From Aeropyrum pernix K1 (GTDB lineage: Archaea > Thermoproteota > Thermoprotei_A > Sulfolobales > Acidilobaceae): 32,000 nt of DNA. Positions within the stretch are counted from its first letter, which is position 1. Each line of letters opens with the position of its first letter. Where the stretch lies: positions 1,637,697 to 1,669,696 of the forward strand of contig NC_000854.2 in the NCBI RefSeq assembly GCF_000011125.1, read 5' to 3'. A model generated the notes under the pieces. It searched no databases, had not been told where the DNA came from, and saw only the letters and a program-made list of their open reading frames with translations. Shown here piece after piece: positions 4,977-32,000 of the stretch. The position numbers and the translations under genes are program-made.

Positions 4977-6251
4977 CTACCTTGACCATACTCCCTTTTT
5001 AGTGTCAACCGCGTTCTCGGTTTTCGCCACTATAGTAGTCCCCACGAGGTCTCCTGTAACGTTCACCATTGTCCTGCCCATGTCTAGGATGACGTCTATA
5101 CCCGCTATGAGGCCATAGGCTAGAGCTACTGTGGGGTCGGTGAGAGAGAGGCCTAGGGCCTCGAGGACTATGGCTAGCATTATCAATCCCGCCCCGGGGA
5201 CGCCGGCGGTGCCTATGGATGCTAGTGTTGCCGCCAGGATTATCGAGAGCTGCTGGCCTATGGATAGGTCTATCCCGAGGGTGTTTGCTATGAAAAGGGC
5301 TGCTACCGCCTGGTACATGGCCGTGCCGTCCATGTTTATTGTGGCGCCGAGGGGGAGTGTGAAGCTGAATATCCTCCTGTCTATTGCCAGCTCCTCCTCC
5401 GCAACCTTCATCGTCACCGGGAGGGTGCCGCTGCTGCTCCTTGTTACGAAGGCCGTCGCCATCGCCTCCAGCGCTCCCTTGAAGAATTTCAACGGGCTGA
5501 AGCCGAAGAGCCTGAGTATCAGCGAGTAGACCCCCAGGACGTGTATGGCTAGGCCTATGTAGAGGGTGATCACGACAACGGCTAGAGGACCTAGGACGCC
5601 TGGGCCGGCTGTGGCCACGACATAGCCTATCAGGGCGAAGACGCCTATGGGAGCGTACTCCAGCACGCCCCTAACGATCTTGTACATGGACTCGGCGAGA
5701 CCGTCGAACACCCTGTAGACAGTCTCGCCGCCGCTCCTTAGCCTGTCGTCCCGCGAGGACCTCAGCAGCGCTACAGCCACTCCCAGGACTATGGCGAAGA
5801 AGATTATCTGCAGCACGTTACCCTCGGCCAGAGCCTTGAATGGGTTCGTGGGCACAATGTTTAGGAGGACCTCGCTAATGGGAGGGGGAGGCTTGACCTG
5901 TATCTCCTTCGCCTCCCCAGCCAGCTCCAGCCCGCGGCCAGGCTGGATTATGTTGGCCACAATGAGCCCGATAGTTATGGCGAAAGCTGTAGTGAACAAG
6001 TAGTAGACGAATATCTTGACGCCAACCCTGCCCAGGAGGCTGGCTGAGATACTCGCGGCACCTACTGCGAGGCTGAAGAACACTATGGGGGCCACTAGCA
6101 TCTTCAGAAGCCTTATAAACAGGTCGCCCAAGGGCTTGAGATCGACCATCACTCCCCCGATAACGATACCAGCAATTATCCCGAGTACGAACCCAACAGC
6201 TATCTTGTATAGAACCGGAATCTCTATGTAACGCCTAAACACTGTTGACAA
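4977..6251 (-). CDS. Sodium/proton:dicarboxylate (glutamate/aspartate) symporter, DAACS/GltPh family
   Basis: Hallmark motifs [10 protein letters not shown] (HP1) and [17 protein letters not shown], plus about 8 TM segments and re-entrant hairpins. TTG start at 6251. Confidence 0.93.
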
Positions 6252-18391: not shown

Positions 18392-19933
18392 CTACCCAGC
18401 CTTCTCCCTCTCAAGGGCTCTCCTTACAGCCTCTACAGCGCTTGGGTCCTCAAGCGTGGTGACGTCTCCAACAGGCTGGCCTCGTAGCAGGCTTATCATA
18501 ATCCTCCTCATTATCTTACCACTCCTAGTCTTCGGGAGCTTCTCCACGAAGTATATCTTTGACGGCTCCGCTATAGGGCCTATCAGCCTTCTCACTGTCT
18601 CCCTAAGCTCCCGCTCCAGCTTATCGCTCGGCTCGTAGCCAGCCCTAAGGACGACGAAGGCCACGGGAACCTCACCCTTAACGGGATCGGGCGCCCCCAC
18701 CACGGCTGCCTCGCTCACCGCGGGGTGTGTGAGGAGGGCGTCCTCAAGCTCTATAGTTCCAATCCTGTGTCCCGCCACGTTGAGGACCTCGTCAGCCCTA
18801 CCTAGAATCCAGAAGTAGCCGTCGCGATCCCTCACAGCATAGTCCGCGGGATAGTAGATCCAAACCCCCTCCTCCGGCTTGCTGAACCTGGACCAGTAGG
18901 TCCTCACATACCTATCAGGATCTCCCCATATACCCAGCATCATGCCGGGCCACGGCTCCCTCACAACCAGGTAGCCCTTCTCACCCGGCCCTGCCTGCCT
19001 CCCGTCACTTGTCAGGACATCAGCCACAATCCCAGGTAGCGGGAGCGTAGCGCTGCCCGGCTTCAGGGGGACCAGCGCTATCCCGGGCGCGGGACTTATC
19101 ATTGCCGCCCCCGTCTCGGTCTGCCACCACGTATCCACTATGGGAGCCCTCTTCCAGCCTATCTTCTCGTAATACCACTTCCACACCTCGGGGTTAATCG
19201 GCTCCCCCACAGTACCCAGTAGCCTTAGCCGGGAGAAGTCTCTGCCCTCAACCCACTCGTCCCCATACTTCCTGAGCAGCCTGAGAAGGGTGGGGCTAGT
19301 GTAGAAGACCGTTACTCCGTAGCGCTCCACCATCTCCCAGATCCTACCAGGGTTCGGATAGTCTGGAGCCCCCTCGTACATGATCTGGGTCTCGCCGTGC
19401 ATCAACGGGCCGTAGACTATGTAGGTGTGGCCCGTTATCCAGCCTATATCCGCGGCGGTCCAGAAAACGTCCTCGGGCCTCGGATCCCAGTTCCAGCGGA
19501 ACACGTTGTAGACGTAGGTCATGTAACCGCCTACGCTGTGCATTATACCCTTAGGCTTTCCCGTCGTCCCGCTGGTGTATAGTATGAAGAGCACGTCGTC
19601 AGACTTCCTCGGCTCCGGCTTTACATAGACCTTCTCAGGCACCTCCTTCAGGAGGTCGTGGTACCAGACGTTCAGCTCGCTGCTCCACCTAACCTCGTTC
19701 CCAGCCCTCCTCACCACTATAACCTTCCTAACCTTTACACCATTGTCGGCGGCAAGCTTCACGGCCTCGTCGGCGTTCTTCTTGAGATCAACTATCCTCC
19801 CCCTCCTATAGAAGCCATCCGCCGTTATCAGGACATCCGCCTTGGCGTCGACAATCCTGTCGGCGAGGGCCCAGCTGCTGAACCCCGAGAATACCACGCT
19901 GTGTATGGCCCCGATTCTTGTCACGGCTAGCAT
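18392..19933 (-). CDS. acs: Acetyl-CoA synthetase (AMP-forming), C-terminal 513-aa portion
   Basis: Begins [19 protein letters not shown] (E. coli Acs has ..[20 protein letters not shown]). AMP-binding signature [11 protein letters not shown] and C-terminal ..[12 protein letters not shown]... It directly follows an in-frame TAA. Confidence 0.9.
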
Positions 19934-20356
19934 TTATATGGGTAGCTCGGGTATCATGGGTAGGTAGATTGCAACCCTGTCCCCCGGCTTCACGCCGATA
20001 TACTCTTTCAAGGCGTATGCTAGTCTGTTAACCTCCCTATAAAGGTCGCCGTAGCTGAGAACCCTCCTGTCCCCAGGCTCACCCTCCCAGTAGTATGCCA
20101 CCTTATTCTCAACACTAGTCCCTATCCACCTGTCAAGCGCGTTGAGGTTTATGTTAGTCTCTCCCCCCACAAACCACCGGTAGAACGGGGCTTTCCCCCT
20201 ATCCAAAACCTGATGCCACGGCTTAAGCCATACGAGCTCCCTGGCTCTCTCATCCCAGAAGCGCTCGATATCCTCTATACTCTTCCTGTAATAACCAAGA
20301 TACCTCTCAGCGTCAGGATAGTACCTCTCCTCGAAGGGAAGAGCCTCCTCAGACAA
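19934..20356 (-). CDS. acs: Acetyl-CoA synthetase, N-terminal 140-aa portion, ending at an in-frame TAA
   Basis: The sequence ..FWDERARELVWLKPW..WFVGGETNINLNALDRW..VAIYLPMIPELPI* matches the ACS N-terminal domain. TTG start at 20356 is preceded by GGTGAG. The stop (19936-19934) is contiguous and in frame with the ATG at 19933. Confidence 0.85.
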   Translation of the reverse strand: MSEEALPFEERYYPDAERYLGYYRKSIEDIERFWDERARELVWLKPWHQVLDRGKAPFYRWFVGGETNINLNALDRWIGTSVENKVAYYWEGEPGDRRVLSYGDLYREVNRLAYALKEYIGVKPGDRVAIYLPMIPELPI

Positions 20357-20659: not shown

Positions 20660-21361
20660 ATGAAGCGTTCCCCTTCAACAGCATGTAGCACGTGCAACAC
20701 GAGGAGAGAGTTCCTGAAGAAGACGGCAAAAGCGGCAGTGGCAACGTCATCCCTCATACTGCTAGGATCCGTCACAATAAAGTCTCAGGCAGCCAGCGAG
20801 AGGGTAAGAGGCAGACGCTTTGCGATGTTTATCGACGTCGACAAGTGCTACGGCTGCTACGCGTGTGTCGTTGCCTGTGCCCACGAGAACAATGTGCCTA
20901 TAGGAGTATATAGGACTTGGATAGAAAGGTATGTGAAGGAGGACGGTACTCCCGTTTATGTCCCCAAACAGTGCAACCACTGTGATAACCCGTCCTGTGT
21001 TGATGTCTGTCCTGTAAAGGCAACCTACGTCAACGAGGACGGCATTGTCCTCGTGGATGACGACCTATGCATAGGCTGTGGAGCATGTATACAGAACTGC
21101 CCCTACGGAGCTAGGTTCTACAACCCCATCAAAGGAGTCGCGGACAAGTGTACCTTCTGCGTCCACAGAATATACTCCGACATGCTTCCCGCCTGTGTAG
21201 AGGCCTGTCCGACGGGTGCAAGGGTGTTCGGCGAGCTTGCCGACGAGGAAAGCGAGGTCTCGAAGCTCATAAGGAGCAACAATGTCCAGCAGCTCAAGCC
21301 ATGGACCGGCAACGACCCACAGATATTCTACAAGGACTTGCCCCAGGAGGCTAACACCTAG
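20660..21361 (+). CDS. 4x[4Fe-4S] ferredoxin-type electron-transfer subunit of a molybdopterin oxidoreductase (TtrB/PsrB/NrfC-like) with a twin-arginine motif
   Basis: Four Cys clusters: CYGCYACVVAC, CNHCDNPSCVDVCP, CIGCGACIQNCP and CTFC..CVEACP. The N-terminus has TRREFLKK. The ATG at 20660 is preferred (Shine-Dalgarno sequence 4 nt upstream). Confidence 0.9.
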   Translation: MKRSPSTACSTCNTRREFLKKTAKAAVATSSLILLGSVTIKSQAASERVRGRRFAMFIDVDKCYGCYACVVACAHENNVPIGVYRTWIERYVKEDGTPVYVPKQCNHCDNPSCVDVCPVKATYVNEDGIVLVDDDLCIGCGACIQNCPYGARFYNPIKGVADKCTFCVHRIYSDMLPACVEACPTGARVFGELADEESEVSKLIRSNNVQQLKPWTGNDPQIFYKDLPQEANT

Positions 21362-27899: not shown

Positions 27900-27978
27900 G
27901 GGCCCGTAGCTCAGCCAGGACCAGAGCGCCGGCCTTCGGAGCCGGCGGTCCCGGGTTCAAATCCCGGCGGGCCCGCCA
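27900..27978 (+). tRNA. tRNA-Arg (anticodon UCG), intron-less, CCA encoded
   Basis: Hand-folded cloverleaf. Acceptor GGGCCCG/CGGGCCC, D arm GCTC-AGCCAGGACCA-GAGC, anticodon arm CCGGC-CTTCGGA-GCCGG, variable CGGTC, T arm CCGGG-TTCAAAT-CCCGG, discriminator G, then CCA. Confidence 0.93.
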
Positions 27979-28119
27979 CAACACACTCTAATCAATCATA
28001 AACCTACGCTTAGAATATATCGGTAACCGAGACCTAAGAAGGGTGCCGGGACTATTGCATGGTAGATTATCAGAAAGAATTCTATACATTAATCTGGAAG
28101 GTTAGGGTACAACTTTTAG

Positions 28120-28263
28120 CTATGGTACCCTCTTGAGGTCCTCGTCAAACGTTGCTAGCACCCTGATATTATAACGCTTGCATGTTATTGTTATCTATGC
28201 GTCACTGGGTGCAAGCCTGTATTGTCTGATCGCCTCTACTAGCTCTTTAGGATCCTGGTGATT
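28120..28263 (-). pseudogene. Remnant of the C-terminal third of a PIN-domain (vapC) gene with an internal TAG
   Basis: The minus-strand translation is NHQDPKELVEAIRQYRLAPSDA*ITITCKRYNIRVLATFDEDLKRVP*. It is homologous to the C-terminus of the cassette-3 vapC (..LLSNDSLIAATCKHYSINTIATREYRG). It has no N-terminal half. Confidence 0.6.
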
Positions 28264-28296
28264 TTTTATTATTACTTTGGCCGGGCTACGGGTCTG

Positions 28297-28749
28297 CTAT
28301 AATTTTGTGTAATCTTGGTTGTCGAGTAAGTAGTATGCTTTAACTCCAATTTTCTGAGCATTATCCTTCATGACTTTATCATTAGTTATCAGGATTCCAT
28401 CTACATGCTTAGCTGTTGCGATAAAGTATGCGTCAACCGCCCTACAACCGGTGATGAGTGCTATCTCAGCGGCTTTGTCGTGTAGTTCTTCTTCTCTTAC
28501 TACATTTACATGCTTCAATGTCGTGTCTACTATCCGAAGGGCTTGCTCTGGAGGGATTCTACGTACAAGGACTGCTCGGAGCTCTATTTCAAAGAGGAAA
28601 GGCTCATAAACTATTACATCCCGGAGAGATAGCTTATCGAGAACTGTTCTAGACCTCTCATGCCTCTCCGGGTCTCCAGGATATAGCAGGTAGTAGTCGG
28701 CAAAAACGCTAGTATCAATCACAACAACGTCTATAACTTGATCTGGCAA
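28297..28749 (-). CDS. vapC: PIN-domain toxin (VapC)
   Basis: PIN acidic residues sit in the usual contexts (VVIDTSVF.., ..YEPFLFE.., ..AVDAYFIATA.., ..ILITNDK). The start abuts the stop of the upstream antitoxin. Confidence 0.85.
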   Translation of the reverse strand: MPDQVIDVVVIDTSVFADYYLLYPGDPERHERSRTVLDKLSLRDVIVYEPFLFEIELRAVLVRRIPPEQALRIVDTTLKHVNVVREEELHDKAAEIALITGCRAVDAYFIATAKHVDGILITNDKVMKDNAQKIGVKAYYLLDNQDYTKL

Positions 28750-28944
28750 TTACCTCCTCTCCTCCACGAACTCCTTAACAGTATCTCGATCAGCCTTGAA
28801 CATGTATTTTCCGGCTTCGTCTTTGAAACCCCTGAAACTCTTTCGGACAACCACTACTTCCAGCTCTTCCCCCTCTCTGAGCACGACCTCTCCAATGGGC
28901 TTCAGGACTCCTTTTTCATACCTGACTCGGATAACCTTTGACAA
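28750..28944 (-). CDS. DUF104-type antitoxin (VapB-like)
   Basis: MSKVIRVRYEKGVLKPIGEV.LREGEELEV is the archaeal DUF104 antitoxin signature. TTG start. Immediately upstream of the PIN gene. Confidence 0.75.
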   Translation of the reverse strand: MSKVIRVRYEKGVLKPIGEVVLREGEELEVVVVRKSFRGFKDEAGKYMFKADRDTVKEFVEERR

Positions 28945-29108
28945 GCCTAGTCCCCATTGTAGCTAGTGTAGTTAGGACTCTAAGCCTTTAACCCTAAGCA
29001 TGTTGCATTATTATCAGCCTCGAGGATGCAGGCTGAGTATCAAGATGGAGTGCATGTTGCATCTTATCATGAAATAAATGCAACACAGGTATTTATAGAG
29101 CGGGTCTC

Positions 29109-29150
29109 CGGAGCCGGAGGTCCCGGGTTCAAATCCCGGCGGGCCCGCCA
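29109..29150 (+). repeat. Copy of the tRNA-Arg 3' part (att-like), 41/42 identical to 27937-27978
   Basis: CGGAGCCGGAGGTCCCGGGTTCAAATCCCGGCGGGCCCGCCA versus tRNA CGGAGCCGGCGGTCCC...GCCA. The 5' half of the tRNA is absent. Confidence 0.9.
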
Positions 29151-29171
29151 CTTATATAACTTTTACATGCT

Positions 29172-29615
29172 TTATTCTACCTTGAGTTTTCTAATTGCTT
29201 CTGTTATGCTCCATACCTCTATTATAGCATGATTTTTTATGTTGTCGAAGTCTTTATCGTTTGTAATTAGAATAGCCTTTGACCTTAGACAGGCCGCAGC
29301 GTGGTATATGTCGGCGAACTCGGTTTCTGGCATATAGGGTTTTACAATTTCTATATCTTCCTTTTTAGGCGTTACTACAGTTACCTTAGCTTCTAGCAGG
29401 CGGTATAGGGTTTCAGCTTGCTCTCTTATGTTTGGTACCCTGGAGGATAATCGGTGAAACCATTTCTTATATTCCTCCAATAATATGTTATCAGCTACTA
29501 GCTCTATGTCTGGGTCTAATAGGAGCCTTAGGAGCAGTTTTGTTGCCGCTGTGTATCCTGATTTGAAGGCTGCTATGAACAAGTTTGTGTCAACCATCAA
29601 TCTTCTCTTTGGCAA
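29172..29615 (-). CDS. vapC: PIN-domain toxin (VapC)
   Basis: LMVDTNLFIAAF.., ..FADIYHAAACL.., ..ILITNDKDF. Overlaps the upstream AbrB-type antitoxin by 26 nt. Confidence 0.85.
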   Translation of the reverse strand: MPKRRLMVDTNLFIAAFKSGYTAATKLLLRLLLDPDIELVADNILLEEYKKWFHRLSSRVPNIREQAETLYRLLEAKVTVVTPKKEDIEIVKPYMPETEFADIYHAAACLRSKAILITNDKDFDNIKNHAIIEVWSITEAIRKLKVE

Positions 29616-29850
29616 TCTTGTTGGCCTCCTCCTCCACCTTTCTGCCGAGCTCCTCCAAGTCTAGGCCAGACCTGGCTACCTCTTCAGCTATCTCTCTGGC
29701 AAGCCTCTCCACATCCACCCTCTTCAACACTAGCAAGTCGTTTTTTACATTAATAATAATGAAAGTGTCCCCCTTTTTCAACCCCAGCTTCCTCCGGAGC
29801 CTACTAGGGATAACAATACGACCCCTATCATCTACAACGACCAGACTCAA
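29590..29850 (-). CDS. vapB: AbrB/SpoVT-type antitoxin (VapB)
   Basis: The sequence VVDDRGRIVIPSRLRRKLGLKKGDTFIII is a swapped-hairpin AbrB DNA-binding motif. TTG start is preceded by GGTGAT. Confidence 0.8.
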   Translation of the reverse strand: MSLVVVDDRGRIVIPSRLRRKLGLKKGDTFIIINVKNDLLVLKRVDVERLAREIAEEVARSGLDLEELGRKVEEEANKIAKEKIDG

Positions 29851-29851
29851 A

Positions 29852-29897
29852 CATTATCACCCATTTATCCCATTTATCCCACTACTCCTATAAAAGT
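29852..29897 (-). promoter_or_regulatory. Candidate vapBC promoter/operator: TATA box plus tandem 9-mers
   Basis: On the minus strand, ACTTTTATAG (29888-29897) is followed by GGGATAAAT-GGGATAAAT-GGGTGATAATG directly before the TTG start. On the plus strand this is CCCATTTAT x2 at 29860-29877. Confidence 0.45.
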
Positions 29898-30030
29898 ATA
29901 CAACACAATTCAGGCGCAGTAATGCTAAACACGTTTCCAGATTATCGTATCGGATATCTATGTCGATAGCCGCTCTTGAAGAACGTTTCCAGTTGATGGT
30001 TTCCGCTGGAAACGCTGTTTATAAGTCTCG

Positions 30031-30082
30031 GGCCTTTGGAGCTGCTGGGGCCCCCCGGTCCCGATTACCGGTGGGCCCGCTA
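30031..30082 (+). repeat. Degenerate copy of the tRNA-Arg anticodon-loop-to-3'-end region (att-like remnant)
   Basis: GGCCTTTGGAGCTGCTGG..GGTCCCGATTACCGGTGGGCCCGCTA aligns to tRNA 27931-27978 with substitutions, an insertion of about 8 nt and a deletion in the T-loop. Confidence 0.7.
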
Positions 30083-30217
30083 CAAAACCCGCAAAACCAT
30101 CATTAACGTATGCTTAGAATATATCGATAACCGGGACCCTAAAAAGACGCCGAGCTCCTTGCAGGGTAGATTATCAGGCTGATAATACCACTAGCCTGGA
30201 AGCTTAAGGTATAACTT

Positions 30218-30662
30218 TTAGCCACGGTATTCTCTTGTTGCTATAGTGTTTATGCTGTAGTGTTTGCAGGTTGCGGCTATTAATGAGTCGTTCGATAGTA
30301 GTCCGTATTTGACGGCGATCCTGCCCGCTTCTTTTACTATCTCCATGGTTATGGGTAGGACTACTAGTCTTCCTTCGTCGTAGAGTTCTTCTAGAAAGGA
30401 TTGTAGTATGACGTATCCCTGTAGTATATCCTTTTCTGTCCTGGATAGTGAGGCCCTCATATTGTAGAATCTTGTATTCACCGTACTTTTCCATGTAGAG
30501 GAGTTTTAGGAGGTTGAATGCCACCTCACTATAAACTACTATAGCGTTTACGGCAAACTTGTATCCTCCCTCAATAATATCCTTAGCAGCAAGATCACTT
30601 GTAAAGTAGCGGAGGATGACGCTACTATCCAGGAACACTGCCTCTCTCAGAGATGTACTCAT
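30218..30662 (-). pseudogene. vapC: PIN-domain toxin (vapC) disrupted by a 1-nt frameshift
   Basis: The N-terminal PIN half (AVFLDSSVILRYF..VYSEVAFNLLKLL) is in the frame of ORF 30204..30662. The C-terminal half (..LLSNDSLIAATCKHYSINTIATR) is in the frame of ORF 30218..30481. The switch must occur near 30465-30500, a stretch that contains GGAAAAG. Confidence 0.7.
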
Positions 30663-30855
30663 AATAATCCTCCTCCCCAGTCTCTCGTTTTCTCACCTTC
30701 ACAATACCGAAGAACCGTCTAACACCTTTACTGCCGCTCCTCTCTTTTATTTCAAGGATAAGCTCCTCTCCTTCTTCCAGGTCGAGAGGCTCCAATGGCT
30801 TTAGCATGCCCTTTTCATACTTAGCGCGAATAACCTTAGACACTGCAACCACCAT
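30625..30855 (-). CDS. DUF104-type antitoxin (VapB-like)
   Basis: ..SKVIRAKYEKGMLKPLEPLDLEEGEELILEI is homologous to the 28750..28944 product. A GTG at 30843 would give MSKVIRAKY, matching its paralogue. Confidence 0.75.
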   Translation of the reverse strand: MVVAVSKVIRAKYEKGMLKPLEPLDLEEGEELILEIKERSGSKGVRRFFGIVKVRKRETGEEDYYEYISERGSVPG

Positions 30856-31007
30856 TGGCTATAAGGCGGGATCGATCCTCTAAGCCTTTACCCTAAGTAC
30901 GTTGCATATCTATCTATCTATTATGATAGGATGCTTGGATTATCTAGATGGAGTATATGTTGTATTCATCCATGCACTAATGCAAGACTAGTATTTATAG
31001 CGCTGTT

Positions 31008-31052
31008 CTTCGGAGCCGGCGGCTCGCGGGTTCAAACTCGCGTCGGGGCTGC
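31008..31052 (+). repeat. Diverged tRNA 3'-part copy (att-like remnant)
   Basis: CTTCGGAGCCGGCGG (31008-31022) is identical to tRNA 27934-27948. It is followed by a divergent T-arm-like segment CTCGCGGGTTCAAACTCGCG and a different acceptor strand, TCGGGGCTGC. Confidence 0.7.
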
Positions 31053-31142
31053 TGAATCATTACTAATTATCCTAATTATTTGATAGTATCCTTCTAATAG
31101 CGAGTTCTTTTAGACGTCTGTTATAGCTAACAGTGCATAATA

Positions 31143-31442
31143 TTATGATGTGAGTGGATAGGATTCTATGGTGCTTGATGTAATTATTATGAGGCGGGGT
31201 TTCTCCTTTAGTAACTCTAGGGCTTTTACTATATTTCTTGCTAATTTATCTAGGTTGTCTTTCCTTACGGGTTCAGCTATATAGATTATTCCGTACTTGG
31301 CATCCTTTCTTAGGTAGGGTTTGAGGAAGTCACTGTCCCGTGTGAGAATTATTCTCCTGCTGTCGTTGGCTATGCGTGCTACTTGCTTGTCGCTGATGCC
31401 TCTATAGCCTGTATCTGGTATCCACTCTACATCGAGGCCCAT
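31143..31442 (-). CDS. DUF5615/Mut7-C-like PIN-related putative toxin; N-terminus lacks a canonical start
   Basis: ..RIILTRDSDF.. and overall similarity to partners of DUF433 antitoxins. The same frame upstream encodes NLLADENVPRPLVKLLRD (to 31496), the usual N-terminus of this family, but has no ATG/GTG/TTG there. Confidence 0.55.
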   Translation of the reverse strand: MGLDVEWIPDTGYRGISDKQVARIANDSRRIILTRDSDFLKPYLRKDAKYGIIYIAEPVRKDNLDKLARNIVKALELLKEKPRLIIITSSTIESYPLTS

Positions 31443-31482
31443 ATCCCTAAGAAGTTTTACAAGGGGCCGGGGTACATTCTCG

Positions 31483-31725
31483 TCAGCTAGTAGATTCGAC
31501 GGCGACCACCTCGACTTTCCTTAGAGTTTCCAGCGCGTATCGTAGGGCCTCGTAGACCGCCTCTATTGGTATGCGGTAATTATCGGCAACCTCTTCTACA
31601 CTCCATCCATTGGCTAGCGCCTCGAGTATGTCATCTACTGTTATGCGTGTTCCCTTAACGGTTGGCCTACCGCCACGCCTACCAGGCACAACCTCTAGCC
31701 ACTTATATCCTGGCAAGAGAACCAT
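31483..31725 (-). CDS. DUF433-type antitoxin
   Basis: GGRPTVKGTRITVDDILEALANGWSVEEVADNYRIPIEAVYEALRYA is the DUF433 signature. The ATG at 31725 is preferred over the TTG run at 31749. Confidence 0.75.
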   Translation of the reverse strand: MVLLPGYKWLEVVPGRRGGRPTVKGTRITVDDILEALANGWSVEEVADNYRIPIEAVYEALRYALETLRKVEVVAVESTS

Positions 31726-31759
31726 AACAGCATTCACCAACAACAACAACTGCTCTAAC

Positions 31760-31771
31760 AGGCTATAGCCT
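31760..31771. promoter_or_regulatory. Perfect 12-bp palindrome AGGCTATAGCCT upstream of the DUF433 antitoxin gene (candidate operator)
   Basis: AGGCTA|TAGCCT is self-complementary and lies 35 nt upstream of the ATG at 31725. Confidence 0.35.
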
Positions 31772-32000
31772 TTATCCTATCAATTCAATCCCAAATGGAT
31801 AATTATTCGGAGGTTAACCAGATATAATACCATTAATTTCAGGGCATTAATCTACAATAGAATTGTTCTTATTTTCAATTGTTGAGGCTTAATTACCTAT
31901 ACAAGTCAAAGTAAAGTTAAGAACACATTCTCCTATCATCATAGTTAGCAATACTAGAATCTAACAACTCATACCATAATTAAAGACACAACGATTATTT

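Follow-up and report, generated by a model that had tools for sequence, protein, structure and literature searches.

Tandem toxin-antitoxin cassettes bounded by copies of a tRNA-Arg(TCG) 3' half form a probable accretion array in Aeropyrum pernix K1

An intact tRNA-Arg(TCG) gene lies near the right end of the window, the stretch of 32,000 nucleotides of A. pernix K1 DNA that was analyzed here, and is followed by four further copies of its 3' part (F2 to F5). The gene and its copies delimit four units of 0.9-1.1 kb (Table 1). A first-pass annotation made from the sequence alone had already recognized the tRNA together with F2 and F4, a toxin-antitoxin (TA) pair on the minus strand of each unit, and a shift to AT-rich composition exactly at the tRNA 3' end. 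ARAGORN, Rfam and blastn-short searches confirm the intact gene and these two copies, Pfam confirms the TA families of all four units and their minus-strand orientation, and windowed GC content falls from 0.58-0.62 to 0.40-0.47 (approximately 0.60 to 0.43) at the expected position.

Table 1. Features of the tRNA-Arg(TCG) locus of A. pernix K1 (window coordinates; L001 is a contig that overlaps the window)
Feature	Position	Strand	Basis or remark
Intact tRNA-Arg(TCG)	27900-27978	+	ARAGORN; Rfam tRNA, 65.2 bits
Unit 1 left end, type L1 (CAACACACTCTAATCAATCATAAACC...)	27979-28100		Homologous to unit 3 left end
Unit 1 PIN toxin relic, C-terminal third, type ending ...FKRVPWLKVIP	28105-28275	-	Two in-frame stop codons
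Unit 1 toxin, PIN domain, 150 aa	28297-28749	-	Pfam PF01850, 57.8 bits
Unit 1 antitoxin, AF2212-like/DUF104, 64 aa	28750-28944	-	Pfam PF01954, 63 bits
Unit 1 right-end module, family B	29054-29098	+	Read from sequence
F2, tRNA 3'-part copy	29097-29150	+	blastn-short, repeat D2, alignment A1
Unit 2 toxin, PIN domain, 147 aa	29172-29615	-	Pfam PF01850, 38.2 bits
Unit 2 antitoxin, MazE/AbrB-type, 86 aa	29590-29850	-	Pfam PF04014, 35.9 bits
Unit 2 right-end module, family C	29985-30025	+	Inverted repeat I14
F3, degenerate copy of tRNA 3' part	30031-30082	+	Alignment A1; nhmmer E = 0.2
Unit 3 left end, type L1	30083-30203		Repeats D1 and D4
Unit 3 toxin pseudogene, PIN, two frameshifts	30204-30662	-	tblastn match split across two frames
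Unit 3 antitoxin, AF2212-like/DUF104, 76 aa	30625-30855	-	Pfam PF01954, 64.9 bits
Unit 3 right-end module, family B	30957-31000	+	Repeats D6 and D8
F4, tRNA 3'-part copy	31008-31052	+	blastn-short 27/29; alignment A1 46/60
Unit 4 putative toxin, DUF5615 (PIN-like), 99 aa, APE_2617d	31143-31442	-	Pfam PF18480, 50.9 bits; identity to A. pernix K1 protein
Unit 4 putative antitoxin, DUF433	31483-31749	-	Pfam PF04255, 67.5 bits
Unit 4 AT-rich spacer, running past the window	31750-32000	.	L001 9760-9285, minus strand
F5, fifth 3'-half copy	about 32105-32158		L001 9338-9285; ~105 nt past window end

The copies differ in how closely they resemble the tRNA, with identity being highest in F2 and lower in F3 to F5. 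The core of F2 (29109-29150) is identical at 41 of 42 positions, and weaker similarity extends leftward (55 nt, 91%; repeat D2). Anticodon position 34 is C in F2 and T in the tRNA, and thus the crossover lies 3' of this position; the tRNA 3' part, from about 27925 to 27978, is the current attL copy. F4 retains an intact anticodon loop and stem, with a diverged T-arm and acceptor, and its variant T-arm (GCTCGCGGGTTCAAACTCGCG) is common to F5. The status of F3 as a tRNA copy, also proposed earlier, stands less firmly on its own sequence (40 of 59 positions identical, and E = 0.2 against a 3'-half profile) and is credible mainly from context, given that conserved cassette ends flank it immediately, a right end before and a left end after it. 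Contig L001, which matches the window without a difference over 2879 nt, continues beyond the unit 4 spacer with a family-A right-end module (TTGTCCCA...TAGGGACA...GTTTAAGG) and then F5, and therefore unit 4 too is bounded on both sides. Assembly error, which had been named as a possible source of the repeats, is excluded because the contigs assembled from six independent sequencing runs reproduce 29122-32000 with at most one mismatch. Of these contigs, two break within F2, as a true repeat would predict.

The earlier claim of exactly one TA pair per unit requires some qualification. Four pairs are indeed present, but unit 1 also holds a second-toxin relic that matches the intact toxins of loci L096, L082 and L100 (47-65% over 48-57 aa by tblastn, stops included), and the toxin of unit 3 is a pseudogene, with a PIN domain detected by Pfam only in an overlapping frame (30218-30481). 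The frameshifted sequence is identical in the six independent assemblies. Decay of the K1 array is evident, and the array may no longer be mobile.

Each right end has a similar construction. In unit 1, an inverted repeat formed by ATGTTGCAT (29054-29062) and ATGCAAC (29078-29084) is followed by the TATA-like sequence TATTTATAG (29090-29098), and unit 3 carries ATGTTGTAT (30957-30965) and ATGCAAG (30980-30986) followed by TATTTATAG (30992-31000), such that the two ends are 72-82% identical (repeats D6 and D8). The unit 2 right end consists of GTTTCCA (29985-29991) and TGGAAAC (30007-30013) followed by TTTATAAG (30018-30025), and shares 71-76% identity with the right ends of L082, L046 and L072. 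The same anatomy recurs across genomes: a left arm of ~90-320 nt, one TA pair, a right arm of ~60-150 nt and then the tRNA-derived core. The right arm terminates in a 7-nt inverted repeat, a TATA-like box at a distance of 3-4 nt and an imperfect copy of the anticodon-stem 5' strand. This inverted repeat is present in 44 of 49 cassette right ends, against a mean of 8.7 and a maximum of 16 in shuffled sequences. Family-A right ends are paired with at least five different cargo types, and type L1 left ends are also found in L082, L100, L085, L111 and L096. The cargo is nearly always a single TA pair, and at least seven families are represented (DUF104/PIN, AbrB/PIN, DUF433/DUF5615, DUF5678/aspartyl protease, HEPN/MNT, TumE plus partner, and ParE plus partner), and a cassette is little more than attP and a TA operon.

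The TATA-like box lies ~10-14 nt upstream of nearly all copies, and the purine-rich, BRE-like stretch before it would direct transcription toward the copy. These features might be taken to mean that the box drives production of a 3'-half RNA, either a split-tRNA partner or a regulatory RNA, and that the copies are kept for this function. Such a role is scarcely credible, however, since an intact tRNA-Arg(TCG) exists, F3 to F5 are degenerate with a non-canonical T-arm, and the only Rfam family with a match is tRNA. Moreover, the box is so close that a transcript would begin inside the copy, near the variable loop.

Similar stacks occur in dozens of related hyperthermophilic archaea, and we found no earlier description of such tRNA-anchored TA cassette arrays. 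At least two 3'-half copies lie on one strand in 32 of 127 loci, and among metagenome-assembled genomes (MAGs) another copy is located within 3 kb at 15 of 68 tRNA-Arg genes (TCG, CCG and GCG). Metagenomes provide 43 additional loci, one with seven copies. The intervals between copies measure 865-1402 bp in 30 of 39 cases, and nearly all of these carry one TA pair.

Comparison with close relatives, one of the checks proposed in the first-pass annotation, gave the predicted result. In K1, A. pernix GCA_004323575 and A. camini SY1, the 5.4 kb that lead to the tRNA 3' end are 94-96% identical, and synteny stops there. Beyond this point the three genomes have four, four and three further 3'-half copies, respectively, and no cassette is shared among the three arrays, revealing complete cassette turnover between close relatives. 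Cassette 2 of A. camini, which is without counterpart in A. pernix, instead matches a cassette of an unrelated Desulfurococcales MAG (85% over 782 of 902 nt), a sign of horizontal spread. Because the best identity between genomes reaches only ~85%, very recent transfer is not documented. Circularized cassettes, empty att junctions and within-strain polymorphism, the first two of which had been suggested as signs of mobility, were not seen; the Logan assemblies of K1 all have the same array.

These comparisons also bear on whether one tRNA-proximal TA unit was simply duplicated in tandem, diverged and was inherited vertically. Homology between units 1 and 3 covers their full length, ends included (repeats D1, D4-D6, D8 and D16; 27950-28073 and 30054-30177 are 75% identical in D1), and neighboring copies of one array often have the same variable-loop base, as such a history would predict. 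Nevertheless, local duplication is very improbable: the gene families of units 2 and 4 are unrelated, the three Aeropyrum genomes contradict it, and related cassettes reside in distant genomes at three tRNA-Arg isoacceptor genes.

Useful hints regarding the mode of insertion come from the repeated segment itself. Positions 27932-27978 of the tRNA are 94-95% identical to the annotated integration site (attP) of SSV1 and to pSSVi and, judged by sequence, the segment is a classical SSV1-type tRNA-Arg att site. As remarked earlier, no integrase is in sight: none was found across the 32-kb window or the 9.4 kb that follow it (~41 kb). Likewise, no integrase for the K1 site is found among the best 120 homologs of a MAG integrase, and the two known K1 proviruses have no match to this att. 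In other genomes, at least 15 loci have a PF16795 integrase, or what is left of one, immediately downstream of an att copy. Cassette left ends also precede integrase genes (type L1 in L059, and type L2 in L008 and L109), a ~12-kb contig with an integrase gene terminates in a family-A right end and att, and larger elements with a PF16795 integrase beside the tRNA have cassette-like right and left ends.

This association with larger elements could also mean that the units shrank in place. Each might be the remnant of a separate full-size integrative element, such as a virus, plasmid or defense island, that was deleted down to a TA pair whose loss is lethal, in which case the 1-kb units were never mobile. 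Intact elements with an integrase exceed 10 kb, integrase remnants or frameshifted integrases adjoin att copies in L035, L083, L091 and L117, and some intervals of 2-5.5 kb carry a P-type ATPase, transporters, a methyltransferase or an NmeDI-like nuclease. The toxin relic of unit 1 and the broken toxin gene of unit 3 are further indications of this kind. Independent deletions, though, should scatter sizes and end points, which is difficult to reconcile with the narrow range of intervals. Furthermore, the same conserved arms flank TA operons of the various cargo families in many genomes, whole cassettes are 80-85% conserved nearly to their ends between unrelated genomes, and none of the small cassettes holds an integrase fragment. 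Reduction in situ is therefore unlikely. Of the two explanations offered in the first-pass annotation, recurrence, uniform size, ends common to integrase-bearing elements and the lack of integrase remnants favor miniature, non-autonomous, att-bearing cassettes.

The K1 region is thus probably an array built by accretion, in which at least four integrative cassettes without an integrase were inserted successively into the tRNA-Arg(TCG) 3' half and retained by addiction. The SSV1-type att site, the greater tRNA likeness of F2 relative to F3-F5 and the comparison with close relatives give good support to the accretion series proposed earlier. A larger member of the family would provide an SSV-type tyrosine integrase (PF16795) in trans, and this enzyme would recombine the cassette att with the tRNA segment running from the anticodon loop to the 3' end. 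Every insertion would use the incoming copy to restore a complete tRNA and would displace the older 3' half outward, so that the newest unit adjoins the tRNA. Loss by excision or by direct-repeat recombination would be counter-selected by TA addiction, and TA-bearing units would consequently accumulate and later degenerate where they lie. That the 1-kb units moved as such, and were mobilized in trans, is presumed from these comparisons. The derived T-arm common to F4 and F5 is not predicted by simple one-by-one accretion at a working tRNA.

Several known systems resemble these arrays. In SSV1-type integration, as carried out by fuselloviruses, pSSVi and pAH1, the target is likewise the downstream half of tRNA-Arg, which is duplicated as a direct repeat of ~44-50 bp, and the integrases that neighbor this tRNA in related genomes carry a catalytic domain of the SSV type (PF16795). 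That elements can integrate one after another at a single tRNA is described for archaea (PMC3119797, PMC8371274). However, the SSV1 att lies within the integrase gene, which is split upon integration, whereas the cassettes lack an integrase. The related integrases, moreover, are ~440 aa proteins with an N-terminal HTH extension, are encoded on the tRNA strand at a position external to att and share only 27-28% identity with those of SSV, and the units measure 0.9-1.4 kb rather than 5-40 kb.

A precedent for integrase-less, att-flanked tandem units is provided by bacterial cis-mobilizable elements (CIMEs) and by the accretion of genomic islands (ICESt1 family). Such units have attL and attR at their borders but no genes for integration or transfer, and site-specific accretion places them in tandem at the 3' end of a target gene (PMC5704250). 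CIMEs are described as decayed bacterial ICEs or IMEs of several kilobases, usually one per locus, whereas the units described here constitute a large archaeal family, uniformly minimal in size, whose arms are conserved and whose TA cargo is interchangeable, in arrays of up to seven copies across many genera.

Integrons, including TA-rich chromosomal superintegrons, similarly capture small, mostly single-operon cassettes serially at one site, with the newest adjoining the anchor. Each cassette has its own recombination site containing an inverted repeat, and TA cassettes are enriched and thought to stabilize the array. Unlike integrons, the array has no adjoining IntI-type integrase, attI or Pc promoter; its anchor is a tRNA gene, its site is a tRNA-derived direct repeat rather than an attC hairpin, and its cassettes have their own promoters, mostly facing away from the anchor. 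The comparison with integrons drawn earlier is therefore best regarded as an analogy of function, and the array is not a member of that group.

The cargo itself belongs to known families of archaeal type II TA modules (VapBC-like), namely PIN toxins with AbrB or DUF104 antitoxins, HEPN/MNT, ParE and TumE. Archaeal vapBC pairs sit in variable regions, where they are gained and lost (PMC3119797). Earlier descriptions name no vehicle for these modules, whereas here each pair is carried within a defined, att-bounded unit.

The array in A. pernix K1 is headed by the only tRNA gene in the window, tRNA-Arg(TCG), and direct repeats on either side of its four units (U1 to U4) are duplicates of the 3' portion of this gene (copies F2 to F5). 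Two of the copies described in the first-pass annotation, F2 and F4, were readily recovered by short-word BLAST with the tRNA. F3 is weak when considered alone (profile E = 0.2), and is credible because a conserved right end lies directly before it and a conserved left end directly after it. F5 is found ~105 nt past position 32000, on a public contig (L001) that is identical to the window over 2879 nt. Identity to the tRNA is highest for F2 and lower for F3 to F5, as expected if F2 is the youngest copy and F3 and F4 are older. The shift toward AT-rich sequence reported at the tRNA 3' end is also evident, with GC content changing from 0.58-0.62 to 0.40-0.47 and remaining low for ~8 kb onward. 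Coordinates and identities are collected in the table.

Features of the K1 array, its relatives and other fetched loci (window numbering unless a locus is named; array positions count from the reductase gene start)
Feature	Position	Strand	Content or identity	Basis
tRNA-Arg(TCG)	27900-27978			ARAGORN; Rfam, 65 bits
F2	29109-29150		51/61 to tRNA 3' part; 41/42	MAFFT; short-word BLAST
F2, leftward extension	to 29097		55 nt, 91%	Repeat analysis
F3			40/59 to tRNA 3' part	MAFFT
F4	31008-31052		46/60 to tRNA 3' part; 27/29	MAFFT; short-word BLAST
F5	L001 9338-9285 (~32105-32158)		43/61 to tRNA 3' part	MAFFT
tRNA 3' end + unit 1 start; F3 + unit 3 start	27950-28073; 30054-30177		Homologous, 75%	
U1		minus	AF2212-like/DUF104 + PIN	Pfam
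U1, toxin relic	28105-28275		57 codons of another PIN toxin, two in-frame stops	
U2		minus	MazE/AbrB + PIN	Pfam
U3		minus	AF2212-like + PIN	Pfam
U4		minus	DUF433 + DUF5615	Pfam
Low-GC island past F5	L001 5400-9280 (~32160-36000)		~4 kb	
Acetyl-CoA synthetase gene	18392-20356	minus	In-frame TAA at 19934-19936	
A. pernix K1 array	tRNA 5302-5380; copies 6501, 7431, 8404, 9509		Units 1-4	
A. camini SY1 array	tRNA ends 5381; copies 6315, 7269, 8984		Two DUF104/PIN units, then longer interval	
Second A. pernix strain array	tRNA ends 5380; copies 6314, 8490, 10864 (weak), 11821		DUF104/PIN units; one 2.1-kb NmeDI-like nuclease unit	
NmeDI_C unit, second A. pernix strain	L131 16838-18016			
Weak copy, second A. 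pernix strain	L131 ~20864-20897			
Family A inverted repeat			TGTCCCA, ~17 nt spacer, TGGGACA	
Family B inverted repeat			GTTGCAT, ~15 nt spacer, ATGCAAC	
Family C inverted repeat			GTTTCCA, ~15 nt spacer, TGGAAAC	
tRNA-Arg(CCG) call	L065 3324-3401			ARAGORN
BrxL + PglX-like methylase	L132 14230-18974; L134 16381-21308			
Short Piwi/Argonaute	L136 9670-10674			

Two other explanations of the repeats find no support here. An assembly artefact, previously raised as a concern, is not borne out because the stretch 29122-32000 is recovered with 0-1 mismatch in contigs assembled from six sequencing runs, and the structure of the array is therefore real. Similarly, the copies might be the 3'-half genes of split tRNAs. 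In such a system no intact gene is expected, and the half gene should have a leader complementary to its partner half, whereas K1 has an intact tRNA-Arg(TCG) and F3 to F5 are degenerate, which makes this reading very unlikely. The copies nevertheless create practical difficulties. They break short-read assemblies, and two of the matching contigs end inside F2. They can also be miscalled as tRNA genes and inflate tRNA gene counts, as at locus L065, where a tRNA-Arg(CCG) call is only a 3'-half copy behind a cassette right end.

Each unit had been described as carrying exactly one toxin-antitoxin (TA) pair on the minus strand. All eight genes score above curated Pfam cut-offs, occur as neighbouring small genes, and belong to recognized toxin and antitoxin families; by family membership, the pairs would qualify as type II TA modules. 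The description requires amendment in two units, since the PIN gene of unit 3 is a pseudogene with two frameshifts and unit 1 retains an additional toxin relic. The K1 array is decaying, as seen from its broken toxin gene, the toxin relic, and the degenerate copies. F4 and F5 also have a derived T-arm in common (GCTCGCGGGTTCAAACTCGCG, 6-nt loop), which would not be expected if cassettes were simply added singly at a functional tRNA. This feature could possibly reflect gene conversion or the joint acquisition of F4-U4-F5 as a block. The weak copy in the second A. pernix strain also has CAAACTCGCG.

Past F5, the low-GC island encodes a 241-aa membrane protein, PadR, a CPBP/Rce1-like protease, and a 192-aa protein, and neither 3'-half copies nor an integrase were detected in these ~4 kb. 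NCBIfam supplied no name for the proteins beyond unit 4, nor for the integrase of related genomes described below. Genes neighbouring the array include an MFS transporter and the tetrathionate reductase genes. Elsewhere in the window, the acetyl-CoA synthetase gene carries an in-frame TAA in K1, where the annotated product is 513 aa, and both A. camini and the other A. pernix strain have Ser at this site in a 654-aa protein. Either this codon is a nonsense mutation or the K1 sequence contains an error here.

Comparisons with close relatives reveal that the array is not an invariant block. The genome scan provided no orthologue of the window among the 120 matches listed, and the orthologous loci of A. 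camini SY1 and a second A. pernix strain (GCA_004323575) were fetched via the tetrathionate reductase genes. The three Aeropyrum genomes are 94-96% identical over 5.4 kb, up to ~24 nt past the tRNA 3' end. Beyond that point they have zero cassettes in common, and each carries a 3'-half array of its own, which is the cassette-level polymorphism that the first-pass annotation had called for. The second A. pernix strain includes a 2.1-kb att-bounded unit that encodes an NmeDI_C-domain protein (restriction endonuclease-like) and no TA pair, and therefore the cassette format is not limited to TA cargo. The highest cassette identity between genomes (~85%) is that of A. camini cassette 2 to a cassette of an unrelated MAG, a sequence match that argues for horizontal spread.

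The same organization recurs widely. When one genome per species was scanned with the 42-nt 3' half, at least 120 places were matched in Desulfurococcales, Acidilobaceae, Pyrodictiaceae, and other Thermoproteota MAGs. Among the fetched loci, 32 were identified by profile search as having at least two copies on one strand, and a second copy is present within 3 kb for 15 of the 68 tRNA-Arg genes that have at least 1.5 kb of downstream sequence. Intervals between copies measure 865-1402 bp in 30 of 39 cases, have a GC content of 0.37-0.49, and nearly always contain a pair of small genes oriented opposite to the tRNA. As classed by iterated HMM search and Pfam, the majority of these gene pairs are DUF104/PIN, and the others include DUF433/DUF5615, DUF5678/aspartyl protease, HEPN/MNT, AbrB/PIN, and TumE or ParE with a partner. 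A few longer intervals carry other cargo (P-type ATPase, transporters, methyltransferase). Metagenomes searched with the right-end pattern yielded 43 more loci, one of which has seven copies; none of the 43 is on a circular contig, and circular or empty-site junctions were likewise not seen in the fetched contigs.

Conserved arms flank the att core of these cassettes. At right ends, a 7-nt inverted repeat is followed by 3-4 nt, a TATA-like box (TATTTAAG, TATTTATAG, or TTTATAAG), ~11 nt that form an imperfect copy of the 5' strand of the anticodon stem, and then the tRNA-derived core. The inverted repeat has a spacer of 14-19 nt and is present with no more than one mismatch in 44 of 49 right ends (26 perfect), compared to a mean of 8.7 and a maximum of 16 in shuffles. 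Three sequence families (A to C) can be distinguished, and in K1 family B precedes F2 and F4, C precedes F3, and A precedes F5. Left ends are of type L1 (CCA followed by CAAACNCCTCTAAANCATCATTAAC...), which is found in units 1 and 3 and in the first cassette of all three Aeropyrum arrays, or of type L2 (CCA followed by CWTAWAAACCCCCTATATAAGCC...).

The inverted repeats might serve as operators for the antitoxins rather than as parts of the cassette ends. Families B and C have been seen only with DUF104- or AbrB-type antitoxins, and for these an operator function is possible. Family A, by comparison, accompanies at least five unrelated types of cargo and antitoxin, with TA pairs in either orientation, which rules out this function and identifies at least family A as a cassette feature. 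The purine-rich stretch before the TATA-like box resembles a BRE, and such a promoter would aim transcription across att, not into the TA operon. The possibility that the right end is a decayed tRNA 5' half was dropped as unconvincing by eye. In metagenomes, 43 of 113 matches to the family-A pattern are followed by a tRNA-Arg-type core, and no other tRNA-like core was recognized after the remaining matches, which look unrelated. The pattern also matches an unrelated repeated sequence, followed by CACGCCGAACCATTCCGCCACC... without a tRNA-like core, on at least eight contigs (L145, L150, L154, L159, L184, L201, L213, and L223).

The core itself is a known integrase target. Against GenBank phages, the sole match of the island is the tRNA 3' half, which shows 94-95% identity to the 44-bp integration site annotated within the SSV1 integrase gene, to the counterparts of this site in other fuselloviruses and, among plasmids, to pSSVi. 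The att core is all that known phages and plasmids have in common with the island, and the cassettes were not found in them. The two known A. pernix proviruses were absent from the phage matches, and IMG/VR viral contigs contained neither the 42-nt att nor the family-A right-end pattern. One 42-nt 3' half, extending from anticodon position 36 to CCA, is common to the tRNA-Arg genes with TCG, CCG, and GCG anticodons in many Thermoproteota families, and therefore one att specificity has three landing sites per genome.

In agreement with the initial reading, no integrase was found by Pfam in all ORFs of the K1 window or in its 9.4-kb extension, and tblastn of both with six integrases returned only the 13-14 aa encoded by att itself. 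In other genomes, matches to the catalytic domain of the SSV1 and pSSVi integrases were detected by tblastn a short distance downstream of several tRNA-Arg genes, on the same strand as the tRNA. The matching ORFs (435-458 aa) have an N-terminal HTH region and a PF16795 'archaeal phage integrase' domain, and with these as queries an intact, cut, or frameshifted integrase was located directly after an att copy in at least 15 loci. The related family has more than 480 members, including proteins of the cultured Ignisphaera aggregans, and its best matches in known viruses are SSV integrases at 27-28% identity. In I. aggregans (L133), this integrase family is found at tRNA-Gly(TCC), adjoining a family-B DNA polymerase element.

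Intact integrase-bearing elements exceed 10 kb and carry cargo such as BREX genes; defence genes in MAG elements at tRNA-Arg comprise BrxL with a PglX-like methylase in two cases and a short Piwi/Argonaute in L136. Three large elements extend past the 10-kb flanks. A right end was obtained only from L136, a ~12-kb contig that encodes an integrase, a MazE/PIN pair, and a short Argonaute and ends in a family-A right end and att. A 5.7-kb contig considered as another such element was rejected, as it proved to be non-circular and to begin at another tRNA. In L059, an integrase gene is preceded by a left end of type L1, and in L008 and L109 by one of type L2. In one contig (L050 plus L091), tRNA-Arg(CCG) is followed by a DUF433/DUF5615 cassette, a copy, a 1.45-kb unit, another copy, and then an integrase remnant. 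It follows that the core and both arms next to att are common to the cassettes and to autonomous elements with the same specificity, a relationship seen in genomes other than K1.

Given the observed anatomy and recurrence of the cassettes, the ends held in common with larger elements, and the turnover between relatives, a mechanism can be proposed. Each cassette would consist of an attP of ~250 bp (core and arms) whose arms enclose a TA operon, and this layout would account for the narrow range of sizes. Recombination of the cassette with the tRNA gene would be carried out by a PF16795 integrase provided in trans. The SSV1 integrase cleaves in the anticodon stem-loop region. F2 has C at anticodon position 34 where the tRNA has T, and the two differ at a variable-loop base that also differs between the tRNAs of the two A. 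pernix strains; these differences are consistent with cleavage in that region. Each integration would restore the tRNA and displace the older copy, which fits the high identity of F2 and the lower identities of F3 to F5. Direct repeats of 42-50 bp would invite deletion, and units that kill cells losing them should persist, which would explain the enrichment of TA pairs.

A tentative reading, which we consider possible, is that hyperthermophilic Thermoproteota maintain an integron-like cassette system anchored at tRNA-Arg. Cassettes of ~1 kb (attP arms plus one operon, usually TA) would circulate in non-replicating form and be captured serially by a PF16795 integrase encoded elsewhere, and the right-end module (the inverted repeat and the TATA-like box facing att) would be a recombination arm, a promoter reading across the junction at att, or both. 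If true, this would give archaeal TA modules a defined vehicle. TA modules are among the most mobile prokaryotic genes and, to our knowledge, their means of movement is rarely known. In at least dozens of hyperthermophile genomes, each TA pair occupies a defined unit that is bounded by att and located at any of three tRNA-Arg genes, and complete array turnover between ~95% identical strains makes TA movement directly testable. A. pernix K1 and A. camini are cultured, sequenced, and differ in their arrays, such that assays of excision, capture, and addiction are feasible. The family to which the integrase belongs has been identified, and the cis sequences are short enough for synthesis.

Integration by SSV-type integrases is targeted to tRNA genes. 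The K1 units resemble such elements in their 3'-part direct repeats, known att core, and variable presence between relatives, but SSV-type elements encode their own integrase (split into intN and intC) and the K1 cassettes do not. Tandem integration has been described in archaea (PMC3119797; PMC8371274), and integrase-less att-flanked units and their accretion are known in bacteria as CIMEs (PMC5704250). The K1 units are CIME-like in that they keep attL and attR without integration or transfer genes, and autonomous elements at tRNA-Arg with the same att specificity have matching left-end types and a family-A right end. No description of tRNA-bounded TA cassettes in archaea was found in the literature searched, a partial library. 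Although the individual parts are known, their combination appears to be new in that literature: minimal, uniform cassettes whose TA cargo is interchangeable and whose inverted-repeat/TATA arm is conserved, arrayed at tRNA-Arg in many archaeal genera. The idea of non-autonomous, CIME-like hitchhiking elements is thereby extended to archaea. Integrons also hold TA-rich cassette arrays. Integron cassettes end in attC sites, imperfect inverted repeats that fold as a hairpin; the cassettes described here have a terminal 7-nt inverted repeat, after which comes a tRNA-derived direct repeat. The head of an integron is formed by IntI, attI, and Pc, whereas the K1 array is headed by a tRNA gene; because this platform is absent, the array is not an integron, and its integron-like outcome would be achieved from unrelated parts.
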